A stretch of DNA of 64,000 nt, taken from an uncultured Verrucomicrobiota bacterium. Its GTDB lineage: Bacteria > Verrucomicrobiota > Verrucomicrobiia > Limisphaerales > UBA1319. The notes beneath the pieces were generated by a model. It ran no database searches, was not told the DNA's origin, and worked only from the letters and a program-made list of their open reading frames with translations. Positions 19,021 through 56,564 of this stretch are shown piece after piece; within the stretch, counting starts at the first letter, position 1, and each line of letters opens with the position of its first letter. The position numbers were made by a program, and so were the translations under genes. Location of the stretch: NCBI GenBank assembly GCA_964538065.1, contig CAZIDG010000013.1:1488-65487 (forward strand), written 5' to 3'.

Positions 19021-19050
19021 CCCCCGAGCGAACATCGGGGGACTTTTTTT
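19021..19050 (+). terminator. rho-independent terminator of the pst operon
   Basis: CCCCCGA-GCGAACA-TCGGGGG (7-bp perfect stem, 7-nt loop), then AC plus T7. It lies 29 nt after the stop at 18992. Confidence 0.8.
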
Positions 19051-19122
19051 GATCCGCATGCGGTGGAATTTTGGTCTCGCCAAGCGCTGGAAGCCCATGC
19101 AGGATGATTTGCCTATTTTTGC

Positions 19123-32724: not shown

Positions 32725-32849
32725 ACCGAGGTTGGATCCTCAGGCTCGGGGCAGGAGAGGTTTGGCCACGGGAAAGGCCCCGACCCGCATCGCGATGCGA
32801 CGCAAGCCGAGGCCTTTGTTCAAGAGGCCACGGGTGTGGTCAGATGCCC

Positions 32850-34964
32850 TTATTTGCGCAGGCGATAAAACGCGGGCGTTGAGCCTGGCGCCACCGAGAC
32901 AGAGTTGTTCGCGACCCCGCTCACGGTCTTCCAATCGGCGGGATTGAAACTGGCTGTGGATTCCAGGGTGTAGCCGCTGGCATCCGCTGGCCAGGAGATG
33001 ACCACGTTGGCTCCCGACCGGCCAATCGTCAGGCTGGGCGATTGGACGGGTGTGGGATTGATGGCATAGAGGCCGAAATCATCGATGCCAAAATACCAGC
33101 TATCGCTTCCGGCGTGGGCAAAACGGAAGCGGACTTTGGACTTCTTGTCCGCCTGGGTCAACCGGAACAATTCCACCCGCTTGGAGTCGACAGAATTATC
33201 GTCCAGCCGGCCGCTGATGAAGGGAGCCAGGTCCTGGGTGACGGCCGCCCCAATAAAGGTGGCATAGGTTCCGCCCTTTTCCTCGCCGTTTTCATCGGTG
33301 TAAAAGGGAAGATCCGAGTATTGAGTCGTCAGCGTGGCCACGGCATCCACAGTGATTTCACCCGTGGATTCATTGGTTTGGTGGAGTACCCACCGGCTAT
33401 CAATCATATAAACCACCGGCAGCCAGGTCGCGCCTTGATCCACGGAGTATTCCACAGCGCCGATGCTGTCCTGGTTTTGCTCCCAGAGGGAATGGAACGA
33501 AAGGTAGACATTCGTCCTGCTGGAGAGGTCGAAATCAGGTGTGAAGACATAATCCACCTGGCTGCGGCCATTGCGATACCCCGAGGTGCTGAAGAGAAAA
33601 CGCCCGCTGGCCAGGGGGACATCGAGCACCTTGCCATTGACCACATTGTTGGGATTCGGGTTCAACACACGGTGGTAGTCCTCCTGCTGGCTCAGCGGCG
33701 CATCAGGAAGGCTGTAGGGGATGAAGGTCCCGGTGAACCGCTGGGCATCCACCACCACCCATGACGCGTAGGATGCGGAGTCCAGATTGCCCAGGTCAAG
33801 ATCCGTGTTGAGGACCTCGGTGTAGTTCGTCTGAGTCCATCCCGTGGGCAGTTGTCCTTCGGGAGTGCTGTCGAAGTTCTCAAAGTAAATCGGTGCCGGC
33901 AGGACGATGTTGCGGTACTCAATCACGGAGAACGCCACCTCGTTGGTGAAGCGGTTGCTGGGAGTTGCGTTGTCGGCAAACACCAGCCGCGCGACGTGGC
34001 TTGAGCCGGGCGCATAGAGGGTCTGGTTGGTATAGGTGACGGTTACCAGATCGGCTTCCTGCTGGACGATGCAGGATGCAGGGGTCCCATCGATCGTCAA
34101 TGCAACGGAGTTGGTGACGACTTTCGATGTCCCGTTGGTGATGGCCGCCATATAGGGGACCACCGGCGGCTGGTTGCTGCTGTTGTTGGCGGGCTTGAGC
34201 GTCAGAATCCGCGGCGTGAGGGAGGCCGACTCGGCCACCGTGATGGTGTTGCTGGCAATGATTTCATAGCTGTCATTGACCATCAGGTAGGCGACGTACC
34301 TGCCGACCTGGGACAAGCCTGTGGAAAAGCTGATCGAGCCCTCGGTCACAGCGCTGTTGCCCGCCTGTGTGCCGTCCAGATAGCACCACAACGTGGACGT
34401 TGGACCGCCGCCAGGGGTCTGACCTTCCTGGTAAATGCCGATCCAATCCTTGACATTGCCAGGGGCATTATTGAACGAAATGGTGATCGGCTGGCTGGGT
34501 GTATATTTCCTGTTATCAGCCCGAATCCGGGGACTGTAGGGGTCCACCACCATGAAGGTATTGGTGGCCAATATGGTGTAGCCGTCGTTTTCGAGGAGAT
34601 AGGTGTACCAAAGCCCGGGAGCAGTAAGCCCCCCGGTAAAGGTCACTGCGCCTTCCTTGAGACCGGTCGTTCCACTCTTGGTGTTATCGACATAAAGCCA
34701 CAAGGTCGAAGGCGTGGGGCCCGGTTCAACCCCTTCGGGGTATACGCCAATCCAATCCTTGCTGTTGCCAGGACCGTTGTTGAAACTGATGGAGATGTCT
34801 TCATCGGTGAAATAGGTTTCGTAAGTGGACTCCAGGGCTGGTGTCTGGGCCTGGGCGGACCATAGGCTGGCAAGAGACAGGCACAGAGCCGACACGAGTG
34901 GCTGCCAGCGCCTTGATCGACGCCGGACATCCAGGTGGGAGACAGTGGTCGTTTTTACATTCAT
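32850..34964 (-). CDS. large secreted protein: two DWIG(I/V)Y beta-sandwich repeats, a choice-of-anchor-J/MAM-like domain, and a C-terminal FYRLRK domain
   Basis: ORF 32850..35147, ATG at 34964 (MNVKTTT..., signal ending AQAQ). Tandem ~105-aa repeats share ISFNN(G/A)PGNxKDWIG(V/I)Y. The central part has FENFDSTPEGQLPTGWTQ. It ends in PAFYRLRK. Confidence 0.7.
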   Translation of the reverse strand: MNVKTTTVSHLDVRRRSRRWQPLVSALCLSLASLWSAQAQTPALESTYETYFTDEDISISFNNGPGNSKDWIGVYPEGVEPGPTPSTLWLYVDNTKSGTTGLKEGAVTFTGGLTAPGLWYTYLLENDGYTILATNTFMVVDPYSPRIRADNRKYTPSQPITISFNNAPGNVKDWIGIYQEGQTPGGGPTSTLWCYLDGTQAGNSAVTEGSISFSTGLSQVGRYVAYLMVNDSYEIIASNTITVAESASLTPRILTLKPANNSSNQPPVVPYMAAITNGTSKVVTNSVALTIDGTPASCIVQQEADLVTVTYTNQTLYAPGSSHVARLVFADNATPSNRFTNEVAFSVIEYRNIVLPAPIYFENFDSTPEGQLPTGWTQTNYTEVLNTDLDLGNLDSASYASWVVVDAQRFTGTFIPYSLPDAPLSQQEDYHRVLNPNPNNVVNGKVLDVPLASGRFLFSTSGYRNGRSQVDYVFTPDFDLSSRTNVYLSFHSLWEQNQDSIGAVEYSVDQGATWLPVVYMIDSRWVLHQTNESTGEITVDAVATLTTQYSDLPFYTDENGEEKGGTYATFIGAAVTQDLAPFISGRLDDNSVDSKRVELFRLTQADKKSKVRFRFAHAGSDSWYFGIDDFGLYAINPTPVQSPSLTIGRSGANVVISWPADASGYTLESTASFNPADWKTVSGVANNSVSVAPGSTPAFYRLRK

Positions 34965-35025
34965 GGCATTTATTTCTTTTGTTGAGTGTGAGTTATGGAA
35001 AATCATCCCCGCATGGAGCGTGGTT

Positions 35026-35517
35026 TCAGGGCGTGCATATGACGGCTGGCGTTCCATCCTGTCCCATGTGCAGCCATTCACTGACGATGGCTTCCCCTTC
35101 GGGTGTGGCGAGGGAATACCAGTTGGTTTGCGACGCCCGGCAGACAAATCGATGTGCTTGTGCCAGACCCCGCCCCATCTGCGGCGAGGTGCCCGTGGCC
35201 TGGGCCTGCTCCATTTGTTGCTTCAACTCCGGTGAGTACTTTTCGAGGTAGGCGATGGTCCAGGACGCCTTGTCCCTGGGATTTCCAGTGGTGGACACGA
35301 CCACGGCTCTCACAGCGTCGCACTCCGTGCCGTGCAGGCCGCGGATGGGGGGAATGGCGTTGCGAGGGCCGGTAAAAAGTTGTTTTTCCGAAAGATCATA
35401 AAAGAAGGTTTTATCCTCCTTGTCCACGCCCCCCAGGAAATGCCTGGCCACGAGGCAGACGGCTCCTGCCAGCAACACCGTGGTGGCAATCACCTTCAAT
35501 CGCTCAGAATTTGCCAT
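35026..35517 (-). CDS. hypothetical membrane-anchored protein
   Basis: 163 aa with a single N-terminal TM segment (VIATTVLLAGAVCLVA). It sits between the prepilin-like gene (15-nt gap) and the large secreted protein (61-nt gap). I recognise no family. Confidence 0.6.
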   Translation of the reverse strand: MANSERLKVIATTVLLAGAVCLVARHFLGGVDKEDKTFFYDLSEKQLFTGPRNAIPPIRGLHGTECDAVRAVVVSTTGNPRDKASWTIAYLEKYSPELKQQMEQAQATGTSPQMGRGLAQAHRFVCRASQTNWYSLATPEGEAIVSEWLHMGQDGTPAVICTP

Positions 35518-35531
35518 AGGAGACGATCATG

Positions 35532-36320
35532 TCATTTGTGAGGCCGGGCCTTGACGGACCACCAGCAGGCATTGGCGTTGCACGGAATGTTGGCCGCGCT
35601 CAGGAGGGTTGCGCTCCCATCCCCCATGCCATAATTGCCCTTGCGGTTATGCCGGACGGCGCCTTTGTCCCCCTGTGCGAGCCGGTTGAATCCTGCGCTG
35701 TTGGCGTTGCCAATCTCCTTCCAGATCCACCATCGATCCTGCGGCCAGACCCCAAAAACATCGCTGTTCCCATCGCCAAAGAGAATCAGCCGGGAGGGAG
35801 CTTCGATGCTCGTGGATTTGCACAGGTTGTTCTCGTAACCTTCAGGGCGTCCAAATGGTGGAGGGGCGCCTCCGGAGAGCCAATGGACATTGACGGCCCC
35901 AATGCCGCTGGGGATGTCAATTTCACCCGAGGTGAATTGTCCCAAAACGGCCGGGGTGGGCGTTTTGGAATTTGAAGGCTTGGCATTCGCATAGACTTCC
36001 TGCTTTTCCGAGGGGCAGTCATACATGCGGGAGTTTTTGCCCAGATAGGGGTATAAATAAGGACGCCAGCTCGATTCAAACCCGGAAAACCTGGCCTGTA
36101 TGGGAGGGAAATACTCCCGGTTGTCCTGGGAATAAACCTGTGTCGCCAGCACGAGCTGGCGCATCCCATTCAGGCAGGCGATCTGCTGTCCTTTGGCCTT
36201 TGCCTGGCTCAACGTTGGCAAAAGCATCGATGCCAGGATCGCGATAATGGCGATAACCACCAAAAGCTCAATAAGGGTAAAACCTCCGACGTCCTGGCCT
36301 TTCTGTGGAGACATGGGCAT
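35532..36320 (-). CDS. prepilin-type N-terminal cleavage/methylation protein of the DUF1559 / H-X9-DG type
   Basis: ORF 35532..36413, ATG at 36320. [23 protein letters not shown] prepilin motif. C-terminal [16 protein letters not shown] gives H-x9-DG. Confidence 0.88.
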
Positions 36321-36541
36321 GCTTCTGCGGAGTGTACTGTTCCCAACGCATGCCAAACCCAATGGGCGAGGGGTGATTGCCTTACGCTGCATAGGTTTAC
36401 TATGCAGTCTCATCTACAGGACTGTCATTGAATTGTCCAATATATAATGAAAATAACGGCGGGCCTGGTTGCGGGGAAAATTCCTCTCAATGGCGGACGG
36501 GTTGGCGGCCATGGGCTCGATCTACAATTCCAGCGCCGTGC

Positions 36542-39370
36542 CTAGTTTTTCGCTGTGGCCACGCCCGGACGATCCATTCGATATCGGTAGTCGGGCCACA
36601 GGGGGCAATTCAAATCAATCCAGCACTTGATCCGCTGCATTTCGTCGTTACTTAAACGGACGTCATGATGCCCGGCATCTAAAATCCGCCACAACTTGCT
36701 CTTGAGCGTGCCGAAACTCATCGGCTCGGCCAGACGATGCTCCTGGCCCCAGGTGTAGTCGAAATAATGCACCCAGCCGCCCTCGACCAATGTCCGGTAC
36801 GAGGCGGGCACGCCTTCGGCATCGCACTTTCTGGTCAAATCCATGCGCGGACTGTCTTGGGCGTTGTGACAGCGGACGCACTGTGACTCCCATACCGGTT
36901 GGACCACGTGTTCATACGCGAAGGGTCCTGCACCCCAGGGAGGCGGTTGCAGTTCGCTCGGAGCGCGATTGAGAGCCATCAAGCGTTTGGAGGCGGCGGG
37001 GGGAGTGGTCGAGCGCGGTTCGTGGCAACCCACGCAACTCCGCTGCTCGCCCGGTTGGAGTTGCACCACGCTGCGCATGCGCTGGAGCTCGTTGAAGTCC
37101 TTATCCAGGGCCTGAAAATAGAGCACCTTGCCCGCGGGCGCGTGGAAGCTGGCCGAGCCATCGTCCTCGACCGGGACGGTCCCCCAAACGCTTTTGGCCA
37201 CATAGCTTGGCCAGCCATTGGGACCGGCGACCTTATGGGTGGGGGAGGCATACCAGTCCTGGAAGGCCTCGTGGTCCTTCTGGTATTCCCCGCTGGGCAG
37301 CTGCTGCAGGTCCGACCGCAATTCCTGGCAGACGCGCAGGTATTTTACGCTGCCACGCGGGACTTCAGACCCCAATCCCTCGTAGACATTGGCGACCATG
37401 AAATGTCCCTGTTCCGGGTGGTCGGTCCGGGATTCCTGGAGGCGCCCTAGAATGGGAGGGGATGCTGTGGGACGCAAGAGAGTGGGCGACATGCTGCCGA
37501 TGGCAGGATCCAGGTACAATATCTCACGATTGCCATAACGATCGATGACATAAAGGCCAAATTTGTCCCAGGGCGCATGGCTGCAGAGGAAATAATCCTG
37601 GCTGATGGGCACGGGATCGCGGAAACACTGTTTGCGAAGCCAGGTCATGTGATATTGGGGCTTGATGTCCGGCGTGATGTTTCGGATGGCCTGGGGATTG
37701 GATCGCCCCATGGCGGGATTAATCAGGGCAATCGGCCCGTTGAGGTCGCCCCCGTGGGACACGAGGGTGCAGACGATCTCGGATGACCCGGGAACTTCAT
37801 GGCCATTGGCATAGCAATTCAGCGTGTTGTTGCCAAAGATCATCTCCGGATGAGTCCCATCGGGCCGGATGGCCCACAGGGTGTGGCCGAAATCAGCGCC
37901 TTTATCCAGATATTCCGAGCGCATCCACAAAATGCGGCCATCGTTCATCAACGAGGGCGTCCATTCGCTCAAATTGGCATGGGAGAGAGGCTGAATCCCT
38001 GAGCCGTCCAGTTCCATTCGAAAGAGCACAAACGCCTGAGGGCGCCAGCAGAGAAACCGCGCCTTGCAGCGTGTGCTGATGAAGGCCATGCCGCCATCAG
38101 GCAGCGGACGCGGGAAGAAATCATGAAACGGACCGCTGGTGATGGGCGTGGCCGCCGTGCCATCGGCATTCATGGCCCAGAGATGAAAATAATCCTCCTT
38201 GGTTGTTCGATAAGCAAAATAGACGCGGCGCGAATCAAAGCTGGCCACGGGATCGCGGGCGATGCCATTGGTCGCATCAAACAGGACCTTGATTTGTGCA
38301 CGGCCGGGGTCCAGTCGTTGCTGGGCACGGGGAATGGTCAGGAGGCATACCCCGCCGCCAGGGCCTCCCGCAGCATCCAGAATGACGCTGTAGTTGTGCG
38401 ACGGCTCATAGGGGTGGCGTTTGACAAACAGGATGTGTTTCAGTGGCGCCAGTTGAGGCTCGCGAAGGAAAAGCTGGCGTTTGGCCAGGCGCGCACGGAA
38501 ATAGAGGTCCTGCTGCCTGCTCGCGGTGTCCGCCACGCGAGGCAGGGCGAGCGACTCCTCCCGCAAGGCTGCCAGCATGGTGCGTTCCTGGCCGGCCTCC
38601 ATGCCCTGCGCTTCAAAACGGGTGAGCATCTCCTCCATTTGATTGAGAACGCGGCGGATGGGGTCCTGCGAATCAACCGCCTGCCCTGTGGCTTTTTCGC
38701 AATCGAATGCGTAGTGAAGCAGATCCGATTCCTGAAGGGGGCCCTCGGGCAGGGAAGGGGCATTCCAGCCTGCATGGGCCACCGTTTCCCACTTTTCCCC
38801 ATCAAGGGAGACTCGGACCTCGACATTGCCGGGATGGCGATCGGTGAAGGATCCATTGCGGTCGCGGGAGAACACAACCCTGCCGATGCGCGATGTCCCG
38901 GGAAATTCGATCTGAACCCATTCCTTTTGGGCCCCGGCTGCGATCCAACTGTGACTGTTGCCCTGGAGGCCGTCATTGAGATGCGGGACTTGATGAATGG
39001 CGTAGCCGGGAAGACACGAGGATGCTGTGGCCTTTCCTCCGTTGGCCGACAAGGCCAGGTTGCGTTCTCCTTCGGGGGCGTACACCTCCAACTCGTCAAT
39101 GCAGGGCTGTCCCGCAGGACTGTCCGTCAGGATTAGCCGGATGAAGCGGGCGTCTTTGCCGGGGAAGGACAGCACGTTGGCCTTGTTAGGCTCAAAGGAC
39201 ATGACCTGTGCGGGAATGGTTGGACACGCCAGCAGCAGGGGCAAAAGGCATCCGAGCCATTGTGCCAGGCGGCGGTGCGACCATCGGCGTGCCCCGGCCA
39301 GGATCGTGGTTGGCCACAAACGGCCCTCAAACACGATCGAGCATCTCCGCCTGGAGTTCACAGTCCTCAT
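36542..39370 (-). CDS. secreted discoidin-domain, beta-propeller, C-terminal di-heme c protein (HzsA-related architecture)
   Basis: 942 aa. Signal-like LGCLLPLLLACPTIPAQV. F5/8-type-C-like segments: IDELEVYAP, WVQIEFP, VEVRVSLDGEKW. A long propeller-like region follows. Two CxxCH motifs: CVGCH at 37022..37036 and CVRCH at 36866..36880. The start overlaps the GH2 stop (ATGA). Confidence 0.7.
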   Translation of the reverse strand: MRTVNSRRRCSIVFEGRLWPTTILAGARRWSHRRLAQWLGCLLPLLLACPTIPAQVMSFEPNKANVLSFPGKDARFIRLILTDSPAGQPCIDELEVYAPEGERNLALSANGGKATASSCLPGYAIHQVPHLNDGLQGNSHSWIAAGAQKEWVQIEFPGTSRIGRVVFSRDRNGSFTDRHPGNVEVRVSLDGEKWETVAHAGWNAPSLPEGPLQESDLLHYAFDCEKATGQAVDSQDPIRRVLNQMEEMLTRFEAQGMEAGQERTMLAALREESLALPRVADTASRQQDLYFRARLAKRQLFLREPQLAPLKHILFVKRHPYEPSHNYSVILDAAGGPGGGVCLLTIPRAQQRLDPGRAQIKVLFDATNGIARDPVASFDSRRVYFAYRTTKEDYFHLWAMNADGTAATPITSGPFHDFFPRPLPDGGMAFISTRCKARFLCWRPQAFVLFRMELDGSGIQPLSHANLSEWTPSLMNDGRILWMRSEYLDKGADFGHTLWAIRPDGTHPEMIFGNNTLNCYANGHEVPGSSEIVCTLVSHGGDLNGPIALINPAMGRSNPQAIRNITPDIKPQYHMTWLRKQCFRDPVPISQDYFLCSHAPWDKFGLYVIDRYGNREILYLDPAIGSMSPTLLRPTASPPILGRLQESRTDHPEQGHFMVANVYEGLGSEVPRGSVKYLRVCQELRSDLQQLPSGEYQKDHEAFQDWYASPTHKVAGPNGWPSYVAKSVWGTVPVEDDGSASFHAPAGKVLYFQALDKDFNELQRMRSVVQLQPGEQRSCVGCHEPRSTTPPAASKRLMALNRAPSELQPPPWGAGPFAYEHVVQPVWESQCVRCHNAQDSPRMDLTRKCDAEGVPASYRTLVEGGWVHYFDYTWGQEHRLAEPMSFGTLKSKLWRILDAGHHDVRLSNDEMQRIKCWIDLNCPLWPDYRYRMDRPGVATAKN

Positions 39371-42300
39371 GGTTTGGAGGGATAGCCAAGTTCCCGGAGC
39401 GTTGCCGCAAAATCCGTGGGCAGCGGAAGGGCCGGACCCTGGGCGGCGGCCTGGGCGCAGGACACAATATTGAGCAGCAGGCGGCCGGCGGCAGGATGAC
39501 GGTCCACCTGGTCCAGCACGTTAAAGGTATTGAGGTAGAATTTCCCATGCCCCAGCGGATACGCCCCCAACATCAGGCCCGAAGCATAGCCATCGGGGCG
39601 GCTCGAGTGGCAAATGGCAAACGCGGCTGCGGCGACCTCCTGAGGGGTGTCCTGGCCTTCGTAAAACACACTGGTGATCAAGGGGCCATAGTAATCCCAA
39701 TCCATGATGCCCGGCGCAGGCATGTGCGCGAACAGGGAATGGCGGGCGGCCACGCATTCCTTGTGATACAGCCAGTCGGAGAACTGTGTTAAACGGCCCT
39801 TGTTCTTCAAGGGGAGCCAGCCAACGGGATCATTGTCCTTCCGAAAGACACCGGGATCGAGAAAGACGGCCGCACAGCCCTGGGCAATCTGTTGGAGGAG
39901 ATGGGCGCGATCCTCGTCCGTCAGTGTGGGAGCCCCCACCAGCAACACCTGCCGCGCATCGTTGCCGGCCGGTTTCCATGGGGTTACCGTGACGCCGCGA
40001 GCCGCAAGCCAGGCTTGAACCCGGGCGTCGATTCCCAAGCCTGCAACCGGAATGGCCGGAGTGGCGGCCTGGGTTGCTTCAGGCTCGGACAGGTGGAATG
40101 TGAGGCGGCCAGCAGCCGGAGCCCCACCATGCTCGAAGGTGGCAACAAGGGTGTATCGGCCTGCCGGACCGGCGAGTGTGACGTCCTCACTGAACACGGG
40201 AAAGGCCAGTGGGCCCTCCTCTCCGCTGGCAGGCTGGGGAACGACCGCCTCGAGCTTTTTCTCCCAGGCGACCCCTTGAGGCCCCATGACTCGCAAACAA
40301 ACCGGATAGCGACCGGGCTTCAGCACATCCTCGTTCGCGAGGATGGCCTCGAGCTTGACGGGGCGTCCTGCATAAGCATGCATGGGGGAAGCGAAAAGAC
40401 ACCAGCGCAGGGGGGCAAACCCCTCCTGAAGCGCATCGACGATGCCAGGCTTGAACTCGCGCCAGAAGGTCCACAAGCCCTCGCCTGTATAGCCATGGTC
40501 GAGCATCCCGGTCAGATTGTACCCGCAAATCTTCGGATTCGAGCGAATCAGGCTTAATCCCAGCTCGCGCTGCCGGACGTGCAGACGTTGACTTTCCCGG
40601 AGCATGTCCTCAGGAAAGGCGTACACGCCATTCATGCCAAGACGGCGCCAGTCTGCGGCGAGCTTCTCCTCGGTCTGTTTGAAGTATTTAAAGTCATCCC
40701 AATCCGGATTGGCTCCAATCTGCTCGTAGTGGCGCAGTTCCCGAATGGCATTCATCAGGCTGCCGATGCCGTACTCGGAAAGAAACACGGGCTTGGAATC
40801 CCTGCCAAGATTGCGGATGCCGGCCTCGATGGCGGGTGTATGGGGTGTGCTTGGATAAACATGGGCGTCCCCTGCGCCTTCAAAGTAACCTCCCCAAGGG
40901 CCTCCCTTGGCGGTGCCCGCATAGTTGGGATTCTCCACGCCCCACATGTGCTGCCATTGGGTCTGGCCCGGGTTGCAGACCGACCCGACGTTATATTGGC
41001 CATCCCAGCGACCGCTTTGCTGAAGCACCAGACGCGTGTCGTCCAGCGATCGCAGCAGCCCCAGACTTGCCTGGGCATGCTGGGACATGGGGCCGTTTCC
41101 CATTTCATTCACCAGGCCAAAGATGACGATGCTGGGGTGATTCCGGTCACGCAGAATCATTTCGCGCAAATTGGCGTCGAAGCGCTCGGCCATTTTGGGG
41201 GAATCCGCCAGGAGCCATGAGGCCAGGTTTTCCTCATAGACCATCAATCCCAGCTCGTCGCAGAGGTCGAGTTGATAGGGGTGAGCCATGCCGGCGATGA
41301 AACGCACGGTGTTGAAGCCGCAAGCCTTCATGTAAACCAGATCCTTGCGCAGCAGGTCGAGAGCCTCCGCTGGCGGGAGGATGGCGCCGACAGGGCAGTG
41401 GTTCCCGGTATGCGCGCTTTTGAGGAACAATCGCTTGCCGTTGAGCCTGAAATACCCCTTCTCAACCCTCAGTTCCCGGAAGCCAAACCGCGTCAGGCGC
41501 TCGTCTCCTTCGGGGTGGCCATCATAGGCGGCGCGCGTCGTGAGGTGGTACAAATAAGGGTCCTCCGGCCCCCAGAGATGAGGCTGGGGAACGGTCAAAA
41601 GACAATCCACGACGCTGACCCCTGGGGGAATCGGCCGTTCGAGGTTCAATCGAGCCATGGCCTCGCCGGAGGTCGCGGGGGCGATGGTCCAGTGCAGCCG
41701 CCCGGCCACCGCAGAAGGGGTGGCGTTGGAGAAAGTCACCTGGACGCGCACCTCGCCATTGGTCCAGTTCGGCCGCGCAAATACATCGGTGATGCGAAGG
41801 GCGGGGACCCAGAACACCTCGACGGATTCGGTGATGCCGCCACTGTTATAGGAACCGCCCACGCCGATGCCGCTGGGCACCTTGTTTCGGTGAGGCGTCT
41901 GGTCGAGCACGATGCCATCAATGGGTTCGGCCTTGGGATTCAACACCCGGACCGCCAGCCGATTGGTCTGTCCGGGTTTGATCGAGGAAGTCACGTCCAG
42001 GGTGAAGGGCGTCTCTCCGCCTTCGTGCCCTCCCACGTCGATGTCATTCAGCCACACCCGGGCCAGATAATCGACGGCGTGAAATCGGATCAGGCAACGA
42101 TCCTGAGAGCGGGGAGCGGGTGGAATGACAAATTCGCGCCAATACCATGCCACACCATGGTAGCCCGGGAGCGATTCCTGCAGAATCCCTGGAACACGGG
42201 CTGGTTTGGCCCCGTCAGCCGGTTTTTGAAACCAGGCCTGGTTCTGGCCGGCGTTGGCAGGATCGCCCGCCACCCGCCAGTCCCCGCCATCCAGGGAAAC

Positions 42301-42399
42301 ATACGAGGATGTCGAGGTCGCGGGTTCCCCGGACCAAACGGACATGGTGACCGCCGCGATCAGGACACAACATGCGAGCCCAAATATTTTCACATTCAT
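39367..42399 (-). CDS. glycoside hydrolase family 2 with a long C-terminal extension
   Basis: ORF 39367..42558, ATG at 42399 (MNVKIFGLACCVLIAAV signal peptide). GVAWYWREF...FHAVDYLARVWLND...GGETPFTLDVT sugar-binding domain. NHPSIVIFGLVNEM (acid/base NE) and VFLSEYG (nucleophile E). Confidence 0.85.
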   Translation of the reverse strand: MNVKIFGLACCVLIAAVTMSVWSGEPATSTSSYVSLDGGDWRVAGDPANAGQNQAWFQKPADGAKPARVPGILQESLPGYHGVAWYWREFVIPPAPRSQDRCLIRFHAVDYLARVWLNDIDVGGHEGGETPFTLDVTSSIKPGQTNRLAVRVLNPKAEPIDGIVLDQTPHRNKVPSGIGVGGSYNSGGITESVEVFWVPALRITDVFARPNWTNGEVRVQVTFSNATPSAVAGRLHWTIAPATSGEAMARLNLERPIPPGVSVVDCLLTVPQPHLWGPEDPYLYHLTTRAAYDGHPEGDERLTRFGFRELRVEKGYFRLNGKRLFLKSAHTGNHCPVGAILPPAEALDLLRKDLVYMKACGFNTVRFIAGMAHPYQLDLCDELGLMVYEENLASWLLADSPKMAERFDANLREMILRDRNHPSIVIFGLVNEMGNGPMSQHAQASLGLLRSLDDTRLVLQQSGRWDGQYNVGSVCNPGQTQWQHMWGVENPNYAGTAKGGPWGGYFEGAGDAHVYPSTPHTPAIEAGIRNLGRDSKPVFLSEYGIGSLMNAIRELRHYEQIGANPDWDDFKYFKQTEEKLAADWRRLGMNGVYAFPEDMLRESQRLHVRQRELGLSLIRSNPKICGYNLTGMLDHGYTGEGLWTFWREFKPGIVDALQEGFAPLRWCLFASPMHAYAGRPVKLEAILANEDVLKPGRYPVCLRVMGPQGVAWEKKLEAVVPQPASGEEGPLAFPVFSEDVTLAGPAGRYTLVATFEHGGAPAAGRLTFHLSEPEATQAATPAIPVAGLGIDARVQAWLAARGVTVTPWKPAGNDARQVLLVGAPTLTDEDRAHLLQQIAQGCAAVFLDPGVFRKDNDPVGWLPLKNKGRLTQFSDWLYHKECVAARHSLFAHMPAPGIMDWDYYGPLITSVFYEGQDTPQEVAAAAFAICHSSRPDGYASGLMLGAYPLGHGKFYLNTFNVLDQVDRHPAAGRLLLNIVSCAQAAAQGPALPLPTDFAATLRELGYPSKP

Positions 42400-42630
42400 G
42401 CGACAGGAAACGGGTTGGAATTCACGGGACGGCTTGTAGTATAGCCCCCCGGCAAGGGAACACAACCTAAACCCGAGCAGGAATTTTGGAAACAGCCGCG
42501 CCGGGCGGATGTGGGCTCCCATGCTGGTCTCCATGGAGCTCTTGTCGAGAAGGCCCATTTAATGATAATGGAGACGTCACAATGACAGAGCATCGAAACG
42601 TTGGCATGTCGATTATTTGAACGATCCAAT

Positions 42631-43956
42631 ATGAAAGCCCGTATTTTATTATGGTCCATTACCTCGGCGCTGGCCGGGTTCCTGTTCGGCTTTGATACCG
42701 TGGTCATCTCCGGGGCCGAGCAAACCATCCAGGCTCTCTGGAATCTCAGCCCGGGACTCCACGGCATTGCCATGGCCTCGGCGCTCTACGGCACCGTGCT
42801 GGGCTCCATGCTGGGAGGATGGCCTTCCGATCGTTTTGGCCGAAAGGCCACGCTCCTTTGGGTCGGGGTCCTGTACGTCATATCGGCCGTGGGTTGCGGT
42901 TTTGCCAGTGGCATAGGCGTTTTCATTGCCGCCCGGTTTATCGGGGGACTCGGCATTGGCATCTCGACAGTGGCGGCGCCGCTCTACATATCCGAGATTT
43001 CGCCACCGGCCTATCGCGGGCGCCTGGCGGGCATGTTCCAGTTTAATATCGTCTTCGGCATCCTGATCGCCTTCGCCTCCAACTTTCTGCTCAGGGATGT
43101 GGGCGAAAATGCCTGGCGATGGATGCTCGGGGTGGCTGCATTTCCATCCATCCTTTACACGGTCATGTGCATGGGGATACCGGAGAGCCCGCGCTGGCTC
43201 ATTGGCCGCAAAGGGGACCGCCAGGCTGGCATCAAGGTGCTCCGGCTCATCGAGCCGGATGCTGCTCCTGCACAGATTGAGGCGCATGCAGATGCCATTC
43301 AGTCGGCCTCTTCCGAACACGTGGTGGCCTCGAAATTCTGGACAATCCGTTTGCGCGTTCCCATCCTGCTGGCCTTCTTGATCGCCTTTTTCAACCAGCT
43401 TTCCGGCATTAATGCGATTCTGTACTTCGCCCCGCGCATCTTCGAGTTGACTGGCCTCGGTGCAAAAGCTGCACTGCTTCAATCCGTGGGCATCGGTGTT
43501 ACAAACCTCATTTTCACCTTTGTTGGGCTGTGGTTGATTGACCAGCTCGGACGACGAACCCTCCTGTTTATTGGATCCCTGGGATACATCATTTCGCTGG
43601 GGCTGACGGCCTGGGCATTTTTTACGCAGCATTATGCCATTGTCCCCGTGTGCATCTTTGCCTTCATCGCGGCTCATGCCGTGGGGCAGGGGGCCGTCAT
43701 CTGGGTGTTCATCTCGGAAATATTCCCCAACCGGCATCGTGCTGAGGGCCAGGCCCTGGGAAGCTTTACCCACTGGATCTTTGCCGCCCTCCTCACAACC
43801 TTTTTCCCCAAGATGGTTACTTCCCTGCCTCCGGGATATGTGTTTCTCTTCTTCTGCGGCATGATGGTGCTTCAACTGGTCTGGGTGCGGTTCATGATGC
43901 CTGAGACCAAGGGGGTCCCGCTTGAGGAGATGCAAAAGAAACTCGGCATTCAATAA
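42631..43956 (+). CDS. MFS sugar porter (sugar:H+ symporter family)
   Basis: ORF 42601..43956, ATG at 42631. Motifs: GFLFGFDTVVISGA, DRFGRK, PESPRWL, PETKG. Confidence 0.9.
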   Translation: MKARILLWSITSALAGFLFGFDTVVISGAEQTIQALWNLSPGLHGIAMASALYGTVLGSMLGGWPSDRFGRKATLLWVGVLYVISAVGCGFASGIGVFIAARFIGGLGIGISTVAAPLYISEISPPAYRGRLAGMFQFNIVFGILIAFASNFLLRDVGENAWRWMLGVAAFPSILYTVMCMGIPESPRWLIGRKGDRQAGIKVLRLIEPDAAPAQIEAHADAIQSASSEHVVASKFWTIRLRVPILLAFLIAFFNQLSGINAILYFAPRIFELTGLGAKAALLQSVGIGVTNLIFTFVGLWLIDQLGRRTLLFIGSLGYIISLGLTAWAFFTQHYAIVPVCIFAFIAAHAVGQGAVIWVFISEIFPNRHRAEGQALGSFTHWIFAALLTTFFPKMVTSLPPGYVFLFFCGMMVLQLVWVRFMMPETKGVPLEEMQKKLGIQ

Positions 43957-43970
43957 AGGGAGCTGACTGC

Positions 43971-44870
43971 ATGAACAAACACCTGAAGATCGTCGGCATG
44001 GGCGAGCTGTTGTGGGATTTGCTGCCGGGCGGGAAGCAGCTTGGCGGCGCACCTGCGAACTTCGCCATTCATGCCCGCCAATTGGGTGCCGAGGGCCTGG
44101 TCGTTTCCTCGGTGGGGGCTGATCCGCTTGGACGCCAGATCCTTGAGCAACTCGGCTCCTGCGGCGTTCCGACCGATGCCATCACGATCCATCCCACGCT
44201 GCCCACCGGCACGGTGACCGTGGCTGTGGCTGAGGATGGCCAGCCGCGATTCACGATCCACGAGAATGTTGCCTGGGATGATATCCAGCCCAACCACGCT
44301 GCCCTTGAGGCGATCCGCCATGCCGATGCGGTGGTTTTCGGCAGTCTGGCGCAACGAACCGCGAAATCGCGCCAGGCGCTTCGCGATCTGCTTGCGCTCG
44401 TGCCATCGAAGGCCGTGTGCGTGTTTGATATCAACCTGCGCCAGCACTACTATTCACTCGAAACGATTGAGTACGGTCTTCGGCGCGCGAATGTGCTCAA
44501 AATCAATCACGAGGAACTGGCTGTGTTGGGCAGCATTCTGGGCATGCGTGGGGATGAACGTGAGCAGGTCAGCCATTTGGCCTCGCGGTACGACTTGAAA
44601 GTGGTGTCATTGACCCGGGGAGCCAGCGGCAGTCTGCTCCATGCCGAAGGCAGGTTCTCTGAGCATCCCGGCTTCCCTGCCAGGGTGGTCGATACGGTTG
44701 GAGCGGGGGACGCCTTCACGGCCTGCCTGACCCTGGGGTTGCTCCATGGTTGGGATCTTGAGCGCATCAACGGTCGCGCCAACGAGATTGCCGCCTATGT
44801 CTGTGCCTGCCCGGGTGCCACACCTGCCTTGCCCGAAACGATGCGTGGCTGGTTTCGTGGCGATGACTGA
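43971..44870 (+). CDS. PfkB-family carbohydrate kinase (fructokinase-like)
   Basis: 299 aa. GELLWDLLPGGKQLGGAPANFA and the catalytic or anion-hole motif VVDTVGAGDAFTA. Confidence 0.85.
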   Translation: MNKHLKIVGMGELLWDLLPGGKQLGGAPANFAIHARQLGAEGLVVSSVGADPLGRQILEQLGSCGVPTDAITIHPTLPTGTVTVAVAEDGQPRFTIHENVAWDDIQPNHAALEAIRHADAVVFGSLAQRTAKSRQALRDLLALVPSKAVCVFDINLRQHYYSLETIEYGLRRANVLKINHEELAVLGSILGMRGDEREQVSHLASRYDLKVVSLTRGASGSLLHAEGRFSEHPGFPARVVDTVGAGDAFTACLTLGLLHGWDLERINGRANEIAAYVCACPGATPALPETMRGWFRGDD

Positions 44871-48847: not shown

Positions 48848-49136
48848 ATCGATTTGGTTTGGAATCCCAAACCTAGCGAAGGTGACCCAGGTGGTCAATG
48901 GGCGTTTTCTGTGCCCCCAGGTGAAACGGTTGCAAAGCTCTTGTGGGGGCATGACTCCGGCCATCGGAACGTCTGATAGACCGCTCCCGTTGTCATCCCA
49001 GGACCGCGGGATACGCGGCTCGTAAACCCAGTCAGTTCAATCCTGATCATGTTGTGGTCGAACGGCCTCTGGGAGTGGAACCGCAAATGGGGTTGAGAAC
49101 TGTTCAAAATGGTGGCAGGAGTATCTTGAAAAGACA

Positions 49137-49880
49137 ATGATCGTCAAAGAAATCATAGCCAGGTCAATCCTCTCGAAATCCCAGATCAATGATTACGCGC
49201 TGAATGCCTACGTGGGGTGTGAACATGGGTGTGTGTATTGCTACGCAAGATTCATGAAGCGGTTCAGCGGACATCCCGAGCCCTGGGGGGAGTTTGTGGA
49301 TGTCAAAGTCAATGCTGCTGAACTCCTTGCCAGGGAGATTTTCAAAAGGAAGGTGGGCACTGTGTGGATAAGCGGCGTCTGCGATGCGTATCAGCCCCTT
49401 GAGGAGAAATACAGACTCACCCGGCAATGTCTTGAAATACTCGTGGGGCAGGGATGGCCGGTGACCATTCAGACAAAATCACCCTTGGTGTTGCGCGACC
49501 TGGATCTTTTAAGGAAATCACCGGCCGCGCAGGTCGGATTCACCATAACCACCGCGGATGAGAGGATGCGCAGGATCTTTGAACCGGGAGCGCCGCCCAT
49601 CGAACAACGGCTTGAAGCCCTGCGAAGGCTCCATGCCGAGGGGATCAAAACCTTTGCCATGATTGCGCCCCTGCTTCCAGGGGCGGATAAGCTGGCGGAA
49701 CTGTTGAAGGGCACTGTGGATCATGTCCTGATTGACCGGTACAATTATTATTACGCGCACTGGGCCTACAAAAAATACGGAATGGAATGGGCCATGAGCG
49801 AGACCTTCTTCCAGGAAAAGGGGGAACAGTTGCGGGCCGCCTTTGAAAAGGCTGGGATATCCTGTCAGAAGCTGTATTGA
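49137..49880 (+). CDS. radical SAM protein (SplB/DNA-photolyase-like COG1533 type)
   Basis: 247 aa. YVGCEHGCVYCYARF gives the Cx3Cx2C cluster motif near the N-terminus. Confidence 0.8.
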   Translation: MIVKEIIARSILSKSQINDYALNAYVGCEHGCVYCYARFMKRFSGHPEPWGEFVDVKVNAAELLAREIFKRKVGTVWISGVCDAYQPLEEKYRLTRQCLEILVGQGWPVTIQTKSPLVLRDLDLLRKSPAAQVGFTITTADERMRRIFEPGAPPIEQRLEALRRLHAEGIKTFAMIAPLLPGADKLAELLKGTVDHVLIDRYNYYYAHWAYKKYGMEWAMSETFFQEKGEQLRAAFEKAGISCQKLY

Positions 49881-49949
49881 GGCATGCCATTTCCTCCTGG
49901 AGAAGGCTGCGCGTCCTCAAACAAGGGCCATGTTTTTCATGGCCCTCAT

Positions 49950-51116
49950 TCATTTCACACGTCCACGCCGTTCCAGGGGTGGCAGGGTGGGGAATGGCGC
50001 GTGTGGTTCGGTTTGATACCAATAAGCGACTGATGCGATGTCGTCCGAGAGAAGTTTGTACTTGCCGTCATCTCCCCAGCCCAGCGCTTGTATGGTCACC
50101 TTTAGTTCATGATCATAGCAGATGGGGTCCATGATGTGCCAGCGATAGAGACTCCAATAGTTGGGTGGCTCATGGCCGTCGTTGGTGGGAAGTGTTGTCC
50201 CGGAATACGCGGTCGTGAATGGCTCGGGAAAACCGTAACTGCCGCAGAAATAATCTTCTGTGCCTGTGCCGCAAATGGTGGGAAATGCCGTGTCGCCATC
50301 CATGAAGAATTTGATTTCACCCTCCCCAAACCAGCCCTTGCGGCGTTGCGTCCAGGCCAGGAATGTGCCGACATATCGTCCCTTGCCTTTGACGCCATCG
50401 AGGATGATGTATGGATTCTGTTGGGCCGTGTCAGCCCGGCGCCATTGCGCATGGAAGTAGCCCGTCTGTTTCGGCAACGGGACCAGCGCATAGGTGATTT
50501 GGAATGCCAGCAGTTCCAGGTCCTTGCCGGACTCATTGGTGAAGGTCACGCGGGCGTGGCGCTTGAACGGCATCGGCCAGTAACAGTTCATGGCGTTGGC
50601 GGGGTTCACGACCACCACCTGCGAATTCACGCGGCCAAACATTTCATGCCCGACGGCGAAGAAATCCGGCGCCGGGACTTCCACCGAAGGGGTGGTTTCG
50701 TTGTCCCAGTAGATCCTCACGATATTGGCGCGGCTCAACCCTTCCACCATCCAGATATGCTGAATCACGCCCGGTCCATCCACATCCATGAGGGTGACCG
50801 TTTCGCCGGCGTTCACACGGAGAAAAGGTTTGACCTTCCACCCCTGGCCGAGGTTGTCGGCAGCACGGGCACTGGCTGCAGGCTTGGGTTCGGCCGGGTT
50901 CGGAATGGCCATCCCTCCCTGGCCCTTGGCACCGGTGAGATTTTCGGCTGAGATTGAGCGCGTCTGGGCGTTGTCCAGGACGGGCAAACTGGCCAGGCCG
51001 CCATTCAGGGACGGTGGCGACAGGCAGACCGTTGTTTTTTGGGAGGGAGTGCCGCATCCTGCAATGCAGGCAACCAGCACGACCGAAATAAAGGCCACAA
51101 ATTTCCGAGTGTTCAT
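49950..51116 (-). CDS. DUF2961 / glycoside hydrolase family 172 lipoprotein
   Basis: MNTRKFVAFISVVLVACIAGCG lipobox. Motifs: SISAENLTGAKGQGG, PGVIQHIWM, CGTGTEDYFCGSYGF. Confidence 0.85.
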   Translation of the reverse strand: MNTRKFVAFISVVLVACIAGCGTPSQKTTVCLSPPSLNGGLASLPVLDNAQTRSISAENLTGAKGQGGMAIPNPAEPKPAASARAADNLGQGWKVKPFLRVNAGETVTLMDVDGPGVIQHIWMVEGLSRANIVRIYWDNETTPSVEVPAPDFFAVGHEMFGRVNSQVVVVNPANAMNCYWPMPFKRHARVTFTNESGKDLELLAFQITYALVPLPKQTGYFHAQWRRADTAQQNPYIILDGVKGKGRYVGTFLAWTQRRKGWFGEGEIKFFMDGDTAFPTICGTGTEDYFCGSYGFPEPFTTAYSGTTLPTNDGHEPPNYWSLYRWHIMDPICYDHELKVTIQALGWGDDGKYKLLSDDIASVAYWYQTEPHAPFPTLPPLERRGRVK

Positions 51117-51271
51117 GGAAATACAATGATTTGTCCCGGATCTTCACCTCAAACCACGCCTGCACGGCGACTCTCATCAACGAGTCCAGGCAGATGGCTT
51201 GCCTGACTCTGATGATAAATCACCGGTCTGTCGACTCCTTTTATGACGGAATTCCCCACCTGGGACGGGCA

Positions 51272-54088: not shown

Positions 54089-54483
54089 GCCGGGCCGAAG
54101 CGATGTCGATGGATTCGGTCTTCCCATCCATGCCATAGGGAGTAGGCTCAAGAAGGATTTCATAACGTATAGATGTTCAAGCATTTCGGTGTAACCTGTT
54201 TAAGGAAATCCACTCACGGAGTCCTTATATGCATGTTCTGTGCGAATGAGGTCAAGGTTTACAGCCAGCGTGGGTTGGGGGAGTCAGGAGTGGAACGGCT
54301 GTGTTTCCTGGTGTTTGAGTCGTCCCACTCCATACGCTTGTTTATCTCGTGCGGCCAATGACAGGAGAATGCCATCGATTCAGGCGACGCATATGTGTCA
54401 GGCTGCCATTATTTGCTCCAACCGAAGCCATATGGGCTGATCGTTGCTGCTTATTGTGTTGAGTCGGTGTCAGGGCAAGCTCC

Positions 54484-55422
54484 TCAAGCAAGGGCCTCCT
54501 TGCAGTATTGAACACACTTGGCCACTTCGGCGACCGAATTGGAGCCTGGTGGTATTTGGTATTCCAGCTCGATGTCGGCGGGGAAGGTCCATTTTTCTTT
54601 GCGCATGAGTTGCAGCACTTCCTTGATCGGGGTCTTACCTGTGCCCCACGGGAGGTTCCCGCCTTCGGCAGTGCGGTCCTTGAGGTGAAGGCTCACTATC
54701 CGGTCGTGGTATTTTTCAAGCACCGGAATCGGCGACAGCCCCTTGGTGCCGGCGAAGTAATGGCCAATGTCGAAGTTGAATCCGATGTATTGCCCATGGG
54801 AGAGGATGGGGTCTTCCTTGTCCATCACGGGGTAGTTGTCTGTGTGGTTGTGGAATCCAACCCAAATCTTATGTTTGTCGGCAAAGGGCGCGACTCTTTT
54901 GGCCAGGGATTCGGAGCGCTCCGTGGTGATGCCCACACAGCCCAGGGCCTTGGCAACCTGGAAACAAAAATCAATCTCCTCATCTGATTGGCCAAAGGGG
55001 ATCTTATGGATGTGAATATTGACCCCTGCGTCGTTATACATTTTGCGCAATTCCTTGCATTTTGCGAGCTGGGCGGCGCGTTGGGCGTCCGTGGGCTTGG
55101 AAGGGGGATTCCCGTCATTATTGCCACGCCGTCCGCCACGATCCATGCCGGCATAGGTCATGATGGCTCCATCCATAAGCTCCACTTCGCTGAGACCATC
55201 CTGGATGAGGGCTTTCAACGAATCCTCCGCGGTGCTGATCCCGTCGCGATAGCTGTAGGTGATGCAGCCGATGCGGACGCCGTTGAAGACGGAGTTGGGC
55301 TTGCCAGCGGGCCTGGACACGCTGGTGTGTTCAGCCGCCCAGACGTGCGGGGACACGAGGGCACATGCGGCAAGTGAGGTTGTTCTGCCGAGAAAGGATC
55401 GGCGCGAGATCGGGTTTTGCAT
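54484..55422 (-). CDS. Tat-exported sugar phosphate isomerase/epimerase (xylose-isomerase-like TIM barrel)
   Basis: ORF 54484..55584, ATG at 55422. MQNPISRRSFLGRTTSLAACA twin-arginine signal. TIM-barrel motifs: VELMDG, VNIHIHKIPFG, GFHNH, FNFDIGHYF, SLHLKD. Confidence 0.85.
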   Translation of the reverse strand: MQNPISRRSFLGRTTSLAACALVSPHVWAAEHTSVSRPAGKPNSVFNGVRIGCITYSYRDGISTAEDSLKALIQDGLSEVELMDGAIMTYAGMDRGGRRGNNDGNPPSKPTDAQRAAQLAKCKELRKMYNDAGVNIHIHKIPFGQSDEEIDFCFQVAKALGCVGITTERSESLAKRVAPFADKHKIWVGFHNHTDNYPVMDKEDPILSHGQYIGFNFDIGHYFAGTKGLSPIPVLEKYHDRIVSLHLKDRTAEGGNLPWGTGKTPIKEVLQLMRKEKWTFPADIELEYQIPPGSNSVAEVAKCVQYCKEALA

Positions 55423-55711
55423 GATACTTGATGTGTTAATGGTTTTAATTCTCTGAAAATGGGGCTTCAGAACGAAATGAGTATGATGACTGTGGCGTGC
55501 CTGCACCGCTTCGGACGCAGAAGCGTGGCCATGACTGCCCCGTGGTGGGCCTTGAGGCCGGCCAGGATTCGCCACCGGGTCCATTCCACAGTTCGTGCAT
55601 GACGTTGGACATTATTCCGTGCAACGTGGCCATAATATAGTGGAAAAATTCCCCTGTCGACTTCTGCCATTTGATGAATTACATAATGCCCCTGGTAAGG
55701 ATATATCGCGC

Positions 55712-56383
55712 ATGTGGTATGATATGGGTCAACTGGTGGGTGCCGTTTTGCTGATTGTGGGTGCCATGCTTCCAGTGGTTAATCCGCTGGGGGACGCTCC
55801 TATATTTCTTGCCATGACAGCCGGTTACGATCGGTCCACTCGTGCCGAGCTGGCCAAGCGCATCTCCCTTTACTCCTTCAGCTTGATGCTTGGATCCATG
55901 CTGCTGGGTTCGTTTGTCCTGCGCCTGTTCGGTCTGTCGATTCCCCTGGTGCAGGTTGCCGGCGGTGCCGTCGTGTGCTCGCTGAGTTGGGCGCTTTTGA
56001 CGGATAATCCGAAGCCTGCTGATGCCAACTCAAGCCATGCCAACGCCAGGGATGTTGCCTTGGGACGTGCCTTCTATCCCATGACGATGCCCATAACAAT
56101 CGACGCAGGAGTCATTTCGGTGGCGATTACCGTGGGCGCAAATCATTCGTACACGGTCGAGCATATGTTGATTCAGCTGATTGCCGCCATCATTGGTGCG
56201 GCGATTCTCACACTGACCATATTAGTGACCTATCTCTATGCAGAGCCGGTCAGTGAACGGATCGGACGCACCGGCATGATGGTCGTGTTGCGCCTGTCGG
56301 CGTTCATCATGCTGTGCATCGGAGTGGGCATTTGTTGGAACGGAATCAAGTCGTTGCTCGTGGAAGTGGGAATCCAGCGCTGA
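55712..56383 (+). CDS. MarC family (UPF0056) integral membrane protein
   Basis: ORF 55595..56383, ATG at 55712. LPVVNPLGDAPIFLAMT, with about six TM segments. Confidence 0.85.
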   Translation: MWYDMGQLVGAVLLIVGAMLPVVNPLGDAPIFLAMTAGYDRSTRAELAKRISLYSFSLMLGSMLLGSFVLRLFGLSIPLVQVAGGAVVCSLSWALLTDNPKPADANSSHANARDVALGRAFYPMTMPITIDAGVISVAITVGANHSYTVEHMLIQLIAAIIGAAILTLTILVTYLYAEPVSERIGRTGMMVVLRLSAFIMLCIGVGICWNGIKSLLVEVGIQR

Positions 56384-56564
56384 CCCGCTCCTGCCGCAAA
56401 GGGAAGGCGACCTGTTCATCATCCTTCCCGAAGCCGAAGCTGGTGGGGGTGCGAATACCCTGACGTTTCCAATCAAGAGTTGGGGGGGACACGTTTAGAA
56501 GCTGCATGACATGTTCTGTTATTTTCCTTGCCGCCTCTTTGGCTTTTGGTTTGATGACGGTGTT

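Follow-up and report, generated by a model that had tools for sequence, protein, structure and literature searches.

The alpha subunit of hydrazine synthase (HzsA) from the anaerobic ammonium-oxidizing (anammox) bacterium Ca. Kuenenia stuttgartiensis (PDB 5C2V/5C2W, chain A) is built from a propeller, a middle domain and a C-terminal cytochrome c domain (PMC12607021). Its heme alpha-I has Tyr591 as the proximal ligand, and His587 of the CxxCH motif binds zinc together with Cys303 (PMC12607021, PMC12758564). Proteins with an HZS_alpha domain are also encoded outside anammox bacteria, in Planctomycetota, Verrucomicrobiota and others, and have been divided into clades I–IV; heme alpha-II is missing from clades II and III, and no protein among the structural neighbours of HzsA has been characterized experimentally (PMC12758564). 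Cultivable bacteria with a family member include Opitutus terrae, Thermogutta terrifontis and Anaerohalosphaera lusitana (PMC12758564). Here we analyse a gene for a 942-amino-acid (aa) protein on a 64,000-nt stretch of contig CAZIDG010000013.1 from an uncultured Verrucomicrobiota bacterium (the window). The HZS_alpha family and HzsA-related proteins outside anammox bacteria are already known, and the 942-aa protein is a further member of this family, which is catalogued but of no assigned function. An initial annotation made from the sequence had likewise stated that such proteins have no assigned function, in agreement with PMC12758564 and with the literature that we searched, in which we found no functional assignment for HzsA-related proteins outside anammox. 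We propose that the 942-aa protein is most likely the alpha-type subunit of a non-anammox, hydrazine synthase-like heme enzyme, with the gene for its partner located elsewhere.

Homology to the hydrazine synthase alpha subunit

The gene is a minus-strand open reading frame (ORF) at 36542..39370 that yields 942 aa from the ATG at 39370; the ORF and the coordinates of both CxxCH motifs agree with the initial annotation, which had described a secreted protein with two heme motifs. An AlphaFold2 model of the protein reached a mean predicted local distance difference test (pLDDT) score of 83.1 and a predicted TM score (pTM) of 0.81, and strand and loop positions in the model were taken from DSSP. 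The layout of the gene is as follows.

36542..39370, minus strand: HzsA-related, discoidin-headed di-heme c protein, 942 aa
39203..39370, minus strand: N-terminal region with predicted Sec-type signal peptide, an Arg-rich stretch and then WLGCLLPLLLA; pLDDT <55
38756..39196, minus strand: discoidin/F5-8 type C (CBM32-like) head, residues ~59-205, from Pfam and a beta-sandwich in the model
38438..38731, minus strand: four-helix linker, residues ~214-311, from the structure model
37391..38437, minus strand: TolB/PD40-like beta-propeller, residues ~312-660, from profile, model and Foldseek
37019..37354, minus strand: HZS_alpha middle domain (PF18582), residues 673-784, with heme motif 1 at its end
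37022..37036, minus strand: heme-c motif 1, C779-V-G-C782-H783, followed by the near-invariant E784; a Tyr matching HzsA Tyr591 is lacking
36596..36913, minus strand: C-terminal class-I-type cytochrome c domain, residues ~820-925, from alignment and model; the HzsA counterpart is described in PMC12607021
36866..36880, minus strand: heme-c motif 2, C831-V-R-C834-H835, from the sequence
36668..36670, minus strand: H901, candidate distal ligand of heme 2, aligned one column off with HzsA His772

The Pfam model HZS_alpha (PF18582) was matched over its whole length (1-98) with an E value of 4.5e-22 and 78.9 bits against a cutoff of 26.6. A single-sequence search of the PDB barely matched HzsA (E 0.006), but a profile built from orthologues and paralogues found 5c2v_A at E 6e-41 over chain residues 28-765 of 782. 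Foldseek, run with the AlphaFold2 model, placed 5c2v_A at the top (E 1.2e-26, target-normalised TM 0.61, 802 columns, 16% identity), the runners-up being TolB propellers at ~1e-10 (next best 8e-11), and confirmed for the 942-aa protein the three-domain fold of HzsA, with propeller, middle domain and C-terminal cytochrome c in the same order. Because both the profile and the Foldseek search match 5c2v_A, the HzsA-like architecture that had been recognized from the sequence reflects true homology, which spans the propeller, the middle domain and the C-terminal heme domain and places two c-type heme motifs in equivalent positions. TolB/PD40 propellers, including those of S9 peptidases, share the propeller fold (Foldseek 1e-10; profile E 1e-4 to 1e-8), and NCBIfam also reports a weak TolB-propeller match; unlike them, however, the 942-aa protein carries fused heme domains and has neither a Tol-Pal context nor a peptidase domain, and the match is limited to the propeller.

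We compared individual residues with HzsA in the profile alignment to 5c2v_A, in which the published residue number equals the 5c2v chain number plus 27. The HzsA sequence CSGCHYGSY (H587, S590, Y591) aligns with CVGCHEPRS (H783) in the 942-aa protein, with a two-residue gap at Ser590/Tyr591. In this alignment the heme ligand Tyr591 has no counterpart, and neither has the zinc ligand Cys303 ('GNCD'), which falls in an insertion present only in HzsA. Conversely, residues R484, Y487 and D489, which are invariant in the group to which the 942-aa protein belongs, are not shared by HzsA in this alignment. A matching loss of the HzsA-specific site was described by Hagglund et al. for other non-anammox clades, and those related clades were likewise concluded not to be hydrazine synthases (PMC12758564). 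The NCBIfam hydrazine_alpha equivalog (NF052339) gave 46.6 bits, where the cutoff is 800, and matched residues 718-784 alone. A true hydrazine synthase was rejected on this score and on the missing Tyr591 and Cys303, and the 942-aa protein is thus almost certainly not one.

The broader idea that it is a genuine HzsA or another nitrogen-cycle enzyme, such as a converter of NO or hydroxylamine, in a non-anammox host draws on the homology to HzsA and on the occurrence of the organism in sludge and bioreactor metagenomes. We regard it as scarcely credible, given the equivalog score, the absent site residues and the published conclusion on related clades, to which the genomic setting can be added: unlike HzsA, the gene has no adjoining hzsB or hzsC, the window holds no hzsBC or other heme gene, and the context is one of sugar catabolism in a probable Verrucomicrobiota heterotroph.

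A further difference from HzsA is the additional discoidin head and helical linker at the N terminus. PF00754 (F5_F8_type_C) matched residues 114-199 with E 6.9e-9 and 36.3 bits (gathering cutoff 28.2), and PF22633 matched in the head with E 1.7e-5. The initial annotation had noted several discoidin-like segments; the domain is present, but there is one and not several. Among orthologues it is rich in invariant residues. The linker is counted in the conserved core of the family because matches to distant relatives begin near residue 234. A signal peptide is predicted with the ATG as well as with each alternative in-frame start, namely GTG 39361, GTG 39334 (GGAG 10 nt upstream) and TTG 39319 (GAGG 5 nt upstream). 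Most homologues have much shorter N-termini than the 942-aa protein, with signal peptides of ~20 aa that end just ahead of a conserved FEPxxxN. We also considered a lipoprotein and dropped it, because the 'LLAC' of the signal peptide is not conserved among orthologues.

An exhaustive phmmer search returned 7,942 clusters (50% identity) at E<=1e-3 and 1,438 at E<=1e-30, and a 90%-clustered database yielded at least 1,226 scored homologues. The top 120 of these homologues (60-82% identity) all carry PF00754 and PF18582, and some bear the NCBI names 'HzsA-related protein' or 'discoidin domain-containing protein'. Relatives are encoded in 298 GTDB species genomes, the best 80 of which are labelled mainly Planctomycetota and Verrucomicrobiota, and also Kiritimatiellota, Armatimonadota, Omnitrophota and Chloroflexota. 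Identity to the 942-aa protein is bimodal, at least 55% (orthologues) or at most 35% (paralogues), and this separation defines a clean discoidin-headed orthogroup, with paralogues alongside in some loci. The complete genome CP070678.1 is among those that carry the orthologue. The orthogroup, which sets the protein apart from other HZS_alpha proteins, crosses phyla and is nested within the HZS_alpha superfamily. Among 38 long relatives the heads comprise F5/8C (11), Laminin_G_3 (5), NPCBM (3), FGE-sulfatase (2), DUF1080 (2) and DUF642 (1), and one relative bears a CCP_MauG domain; by domain type, most of the heads would be lectin- or carbohydrate-binding module (CBM)-type modules. Two loci from metagenome-assembled genomes titled 'uncultured Bifidobacterium sp.' (L035 and L036) carry multi-paralogue operons of HzsA-like and HzsB/C-like genes; their orthologue nests in a Verrucomicrobiota clade, and the bins are probably mislabelled or contaminated.

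Invariant residues and the two heme sites

Both CxxCH motifs are kept in all 75 full-length orthologues, in all 24 paralogues and in 98% of 53 relatives with less than 45% identity; they did not arise by chance, and the heme motifs read from the sequence in the initial annotation hold up in orthologues. As a member of the HZS_alpha-domain proteins of Planctomycetota, Verrucomicrobiota and others (clades I–IV, PMC12758564), the 942-aa protein combines PF18582 with both heme motifs. In HzsA, the bis-His heme alpha-II has His772 as its distal ligand, and this residue aligns one column off with 'GHH' at H901, a residue that is invariant in the orthologues and present in 92% of the relatives below 45% identity. 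Heme 2 would therefore be a bis-His heme (H835/H901) suited to electron transfer, and the 942-aa protein, unlike the published clades II and III, retains both this heme site and the candidate distal His. Heme 1 is predicted to be ordinarily ligated by His783, because there is no Tyr that could replace His as the proximal ligand.

The same 53 relatives point to a set of conserved positions in the propeller and the heme domains. Seven residues (P424, C441, G478, Y487, G505, P527 and G545) are conserved in 100% of them, R484, D504, H539, D737-G-S739, D756, M765, Y858, W917 and D919 in 94-98% (M765 in 94%), and D489 in 91%. In the structure model, C441, Y487 and H539 would sit in the B-C loops of three consecutive blades and hence on one face of the propeller, and in our reading Cys303 of HzsA, which touches the heme alpha-I motif, lies in a D-A propeller loop on the same face. 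Residues C441, R484, Y487, D489, D504 and H539 may thus form a family-specific pocket adjoining heme 1.

These residues also bear on the idea that the protein is no enzyme at all, and serves as a surface adhesin or an electron-carrier cytochrome with the propeller as a scaffold. Both hemes could be six-coordinate, with H901 (heme 2) and M765 (heme 1) as candidate ligands, and a lectin head joined to a propeller is a common layout of adhesins. However, the extreme conservation (55-82% identity across phyla) and the invariant C441, R484, Y487, D489, D504 and H539 in the propeller are typical of a catalytic pocket and not of a scaffold, which makes a non-enzymatic role very unlikely.

At window position 36887, next to heme motif 2, the sludge assemblies X1, X2 and X5 all have A for C, which changes E828 to D. 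D828 is the family consensus residue directly ahead of this motif, and E828 looks like a strain polymorphism.

The glycosidase neighbour and the wider gene neighbourhood

The genes upstream of the heme protein are as follows.

39367..42399, minus strand: exported glycoside hydrolase family 2 (GH2) glycosidase, 1010 aa from ATG 42399, from Pfam and a predicted signal peptide
42601..44870, plus strand: divergent major facilitator superfamily (MFS) sugar porter and PfkB kinase, context only

The GH2 protein matched PF02837, PF00703 and PF02836 (N-terminal sugar-binding, Ig-like and TIM-barrel domains), all above cutoff, and its best PDB match was 5t98 at 2.5e-30; ~450 aa of C-terminal sequence carry no domain assignment. 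It contains the motifs VNEMG (E432) and LSEYG (E542), which, by comparison with the LacZ and GUS motifs, we take to hold the putative acid/base and the putative nucleophile, respectively. The divergent sugar porter (Sugar_tr, E 1e-102) and PfkB kinase (E 1e-42) were likewise identified correctly in the initial annotation, as were the ~1010-aa GH2 and the ATGA overlap at 39367..39370. Translational coupling of GH2 and the heme protein, which that overlap had been taken to indicate, is a different matter. The overlap exists, but the start codon of the heme protein is ambiguous, and in L001, a relative whose heme protein is 82% identical, the called start lies 83 nt past the GH2 stop; coupling is therefore only possible.

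We next asked how often the two genes are neighbours, using tblastn of the window GH2 at E<=1e-10 over 82 other orthologue loci. A GH2 homologue stood beside the orthologue in one of them, L001 (87.6% identity), and ORF clustering added a distant GH2-like gene ~5 kb off in L018. L001 is a syntenic close relative, with 82-90% DNA identity across ~20 kb. Conserved GH2 adjacency across homologue neighbourhoods was thus not found, and the link to GH2 loses its value as a functional clue, its one recurrence being in a near-identical, syntenic locus. The adjacency is a local accident of the lineage and not a conserved partnership; in this lineage only, the GH2 gene lies on a shared strand and possibly on a shared transcript. 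The initial annotation had also favoured a redox step in glycan processing over nitrogen chemistry: its negative half stands, in that hydrazine synthase is disfavoured, and the basis in GH2 for its positive half is lost.

Consequently, we consider it improbable that the heme protein and GH2 are a co-translated functional pair in which the former performs a redox step on the glycan hydrolysed by the latter. The ATGA overlap, the common strand and the export signals on both proteins would fit such a pair, as would its retention in L001, the discoidin head of the heme protein and a region rich in sugar genes (MFS, PfkB, GFO/IDH/MocA, DUF1080 and GH172). Set against these are the single occurrence among 82 loci in a relative that is merely syntenic, the heterogeneous same-strand neighbours elsewhere, and the ambiguity of the start codon, and thus of the overlap, with a gap in L001 as called.

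The comparison with L001 also shows how variable the surroundings are. Three genes downstream of the heme protein (window 32725-36566), encoding a prepilin-like protein (DUF1559/N_methyl), a protein of 163 aa and a secreted one of 765 aa, are missing in L001, where ~110 bp (12760-12868) take their place, and any operon extending past 36542 is therefore strain-specific. The DUF1559-type prepilin gene also points to Verrucomicrobiota as the probable host. A stretch of ~7.6 kb (window 48862-56498) with radical SAM, GH172/DUF2961 and 970-aa CBM9-like genes is also missing in L001 (350-423). Insertions and deletions make the sugar-gene neighbourhood a mosaic. Within the syntenic block, the heme-protein gene (36567-39199) is the most diverged: its identity to L001 is 81.9% at the DNA level and 82% at the protein level, while its neighbours reach 89-90% and 88-97%, respectively. 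The signal-peptide region (39200-39391) gave no alignment to L001. This divergence could reflect allelic replacement or relaxed constraint in an otherwise strongly conserved family. Runs X1-X4, X6 and X9 bear the label 'METAGENOMIC RNA-Seq' but have the character of DNA assemblies and are not expression evidence: of the two that were aligned, X1 yields a 142-kb contig of flat depth and X2 a 54-kb contig, and X6 has the same size and sample as the DNA run X5, of which it is a duplicate.

To survey the neighbourhoods as a whole, ORFs were called in 83 loci and the window (919 ORFs) and clustered all-against-all. Across these 84 loci there was no conserved neighbour apart from one gene, found in a minority. 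Its product combines a signal peptide with a propeller, a CCP_MauG-like di-heme domain and a cytochrome c part, and has two CxxCH motifs in all, which by its domains would be the layout of a fused HzsB/C (beta-gamma) protein. This HzsB/C-like gene lies within 10 kb in 10 of the 53 loci of at least 15 kb, and in several it is directly downstream of the orthologue, as in those genomes of the HZS_alpha family in which an alpha-like gene stands directly upstream of a fused beta-gamma-like gene. Loci of this kind often also contain extra HzsA-like paralogues and an IclR_C/AraC regulator. Unlike the co-located HZS_alpha cases, most loci of the orthogroup, the window included, have no beta-gamma gene nearby. 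In a maximum-likelihood (ML) tree of 74 orthologues, the linkage requires at least five changes. It is seen in L029 (labelled Armatimonadota; beta-gamma-like gene at 6850-8691), which is sister to the pair formed by the window and L001 (SH-aLRT 87). Scattered linkage that includes the sister lineage suggests that the orthologues share one mode of action, with a partner that is often unlinked.

Other neighbours are varied. GFO/IDH/MocA genes occur in 16-17 loci, which by a rough estimate is about the chance level for genomes of the Planctomycetes–Verrucomicrobia–Chlamydiae (PVC) group. The 55 same-strand neighbours include GH172 (3), GH78 (2), gluconolactonase-like (2), GFO/IDH/MocA (2) and IclR (2) genes, with single cases of a fucosidase, a sulfatase, an S15 peptidase, a chorismate synthase and an aminotransferase. 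By raw count, glycosidase, sulfatase and sugar-oxidoreductase genes appear to be in loose surplus here; together with the lectin-type heads across the family, this is the softer evidence that is left for a glycan role.

Such neighbours are what might be expected if the protein were a stand-alone, lectin-targeted heme-c oxidoreductase or peroxidase that acts on a carbohydrate-derived substrate, its electron exchange being with either a small oxidant or a soluble cytochrome. The lectin- or CBM-type heads, the GH172, GH78, fucosidase, sulfatase, gluconolactonase-like and GFO genes on the same strand, and the ~80% of long loci that, like the window, have no beta-gamma gene nearby argue in its favour. 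However, linked beta-gamma genes turn up at scattered points of the tree, the sister lineage among them, the neighbour surplus is a raw count, and many hosts of orthologues are labelled Sedimentisphaerales, Anaerohalosphaeraceae and Kiritimatiellae. These groups are typically anaerobes, in which chemistry driven by O2 or H2O2 is less obvious. On balance, a stand-alone enzyme seems to us rather unlikely.

Several further genes were seen beside the HzsB/C-like loci. In four of the ten linked loci, a gene beside the HzsB/C-like one encodes a protein of 335-398 aa that has RidA/L-PSP and chorismatase-like (FkbO/Hyg5 N-terminal) domains:

L029, 8738-9745: RidA/chorismatase-like gene
L056, 15016-16212: RidA/chorismatase-like gene
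L035, ~9690-10568: RidA/chorismatase-like gene
L036, ~14364-15239: RidA/chorismatase-like gene

The two copies examined (L029 and L056) have no signal peptide, and the gene was dropped as a functional lead. In L056, from a Kiritimatiellae metagenome-assembled genome (MAG), two radical SAM/SPASM genes and a NirDL-like gene, of the siroheme decarboxylase type, follow directly after the HZS-like operon (16222-19585). They look like alternative heme biosynthesis placed by heme-protein genes, and a role of the radical SAM/SPASM proteins as cofactor maturases is disfavoured, as they adjoin the NirDL-like gene. A regulator in which an IclR C-terminal ligand domain is fused to an AraC-type helix-turn-helix (HTH) stands beside HzsA-like arrays in L049, L055, L056, L057 and L063.

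Proposed mode of action and significance

The homology, the conserved residues and the recurrent neighbour allow us to propose how the 942-aa protein may work. We consider it fairly probable that this HZS_alpha-family protein is an exported c-type cytochrome that serves as an enzyme subunit, working with a partner and a pocket as follows. Heme 1 (His783) would lie against the propeller face and form, with C441, R484, Y487, D489, D504 and H539, the catalytic or substrate site; it is placed there by analogy, because the Cys303 loop of HzsA touches the heme motif. Heme 2 (H835/H901) would pass electrons to or from the partner, or else a soluble cytochrome. The working enzyme may be a complex with a fused HzsB/C-like protein, a propeller joined to a CCP/MauG-like di-heme domain, whose gene lies elsewhere in the genome; we hold this slightly less likely than not. 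The discoidin head could anchor the enzyme on a substrate or surface that bears glycans. Whether the substrate itself is glycan-related is more doubtful, and we suggest it only tentatively, as a plausible link to glycans.

Several points weigh against this proposal. The window contains no beta-gamma-like gene (best tblastn E 0.75), and the heme protein is alone among its 50 ORFs in having a CxxCH motif. The ~80% of long loci without a beta-gamma gene refers to a distance of 10 kb, and on this count a stand-alone enzyme is equally possible. The nearness of C441, Y487, H539 and M765 to heme 1 was judged from loop positions alone, and M765 as a sixth ligand could make heme 1 a plain electron carrier. 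The glycan link draws on domain types and on a neighbour surplus by raw count. Last, the RNA-labelled runs X1 and X2 are genomic assemblies, and hence lend no RNA support.

Within the larger family a bolder view can be formulated, which we think unlikely but worth stating. The orthogroup and the superfamily with its swapped heads would represent widespread exported heme-c enzymes whose direct redox substrates are glycans or glycoconjugates. They would act, either unaided or together with a beta-gamma partner of the MauG/CCP-like kind, in polysaccharide degraders that are for the most part anaerobic. Such enzymes might oxidize their substrate, oxidatively deaminate amino sugars, or employ a protein-derived cofactor built around the invariant Cys441/Tyr487. 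The lectin- or CBM-type heads on most of the 38 long relatives and the recurrence of glycosidases among neighbours would be compatible with this view. If this were true, such a class would be a heme counterpart of the copper lytic polysaccharide monooxygenases (LPMOs) or of the quinohemoprotein dehydrogenases.

The coupling to GH2 is of no import beyond this lineage. What is new here is that the discoidin-headed form makes up a clean orthogroup across phyla with its own invariant propeller Cys, Tyr, Arg, Asp and His, that it retains a candidate bis-His heme 2, and that its only recurrent neighbour is an HzsB/C-like di-heme gene and not a glycosidase. Knowing the reaction would annotate thousands of PVC genes and would show which kind of enzyme gave rise to hydrazine synthase.

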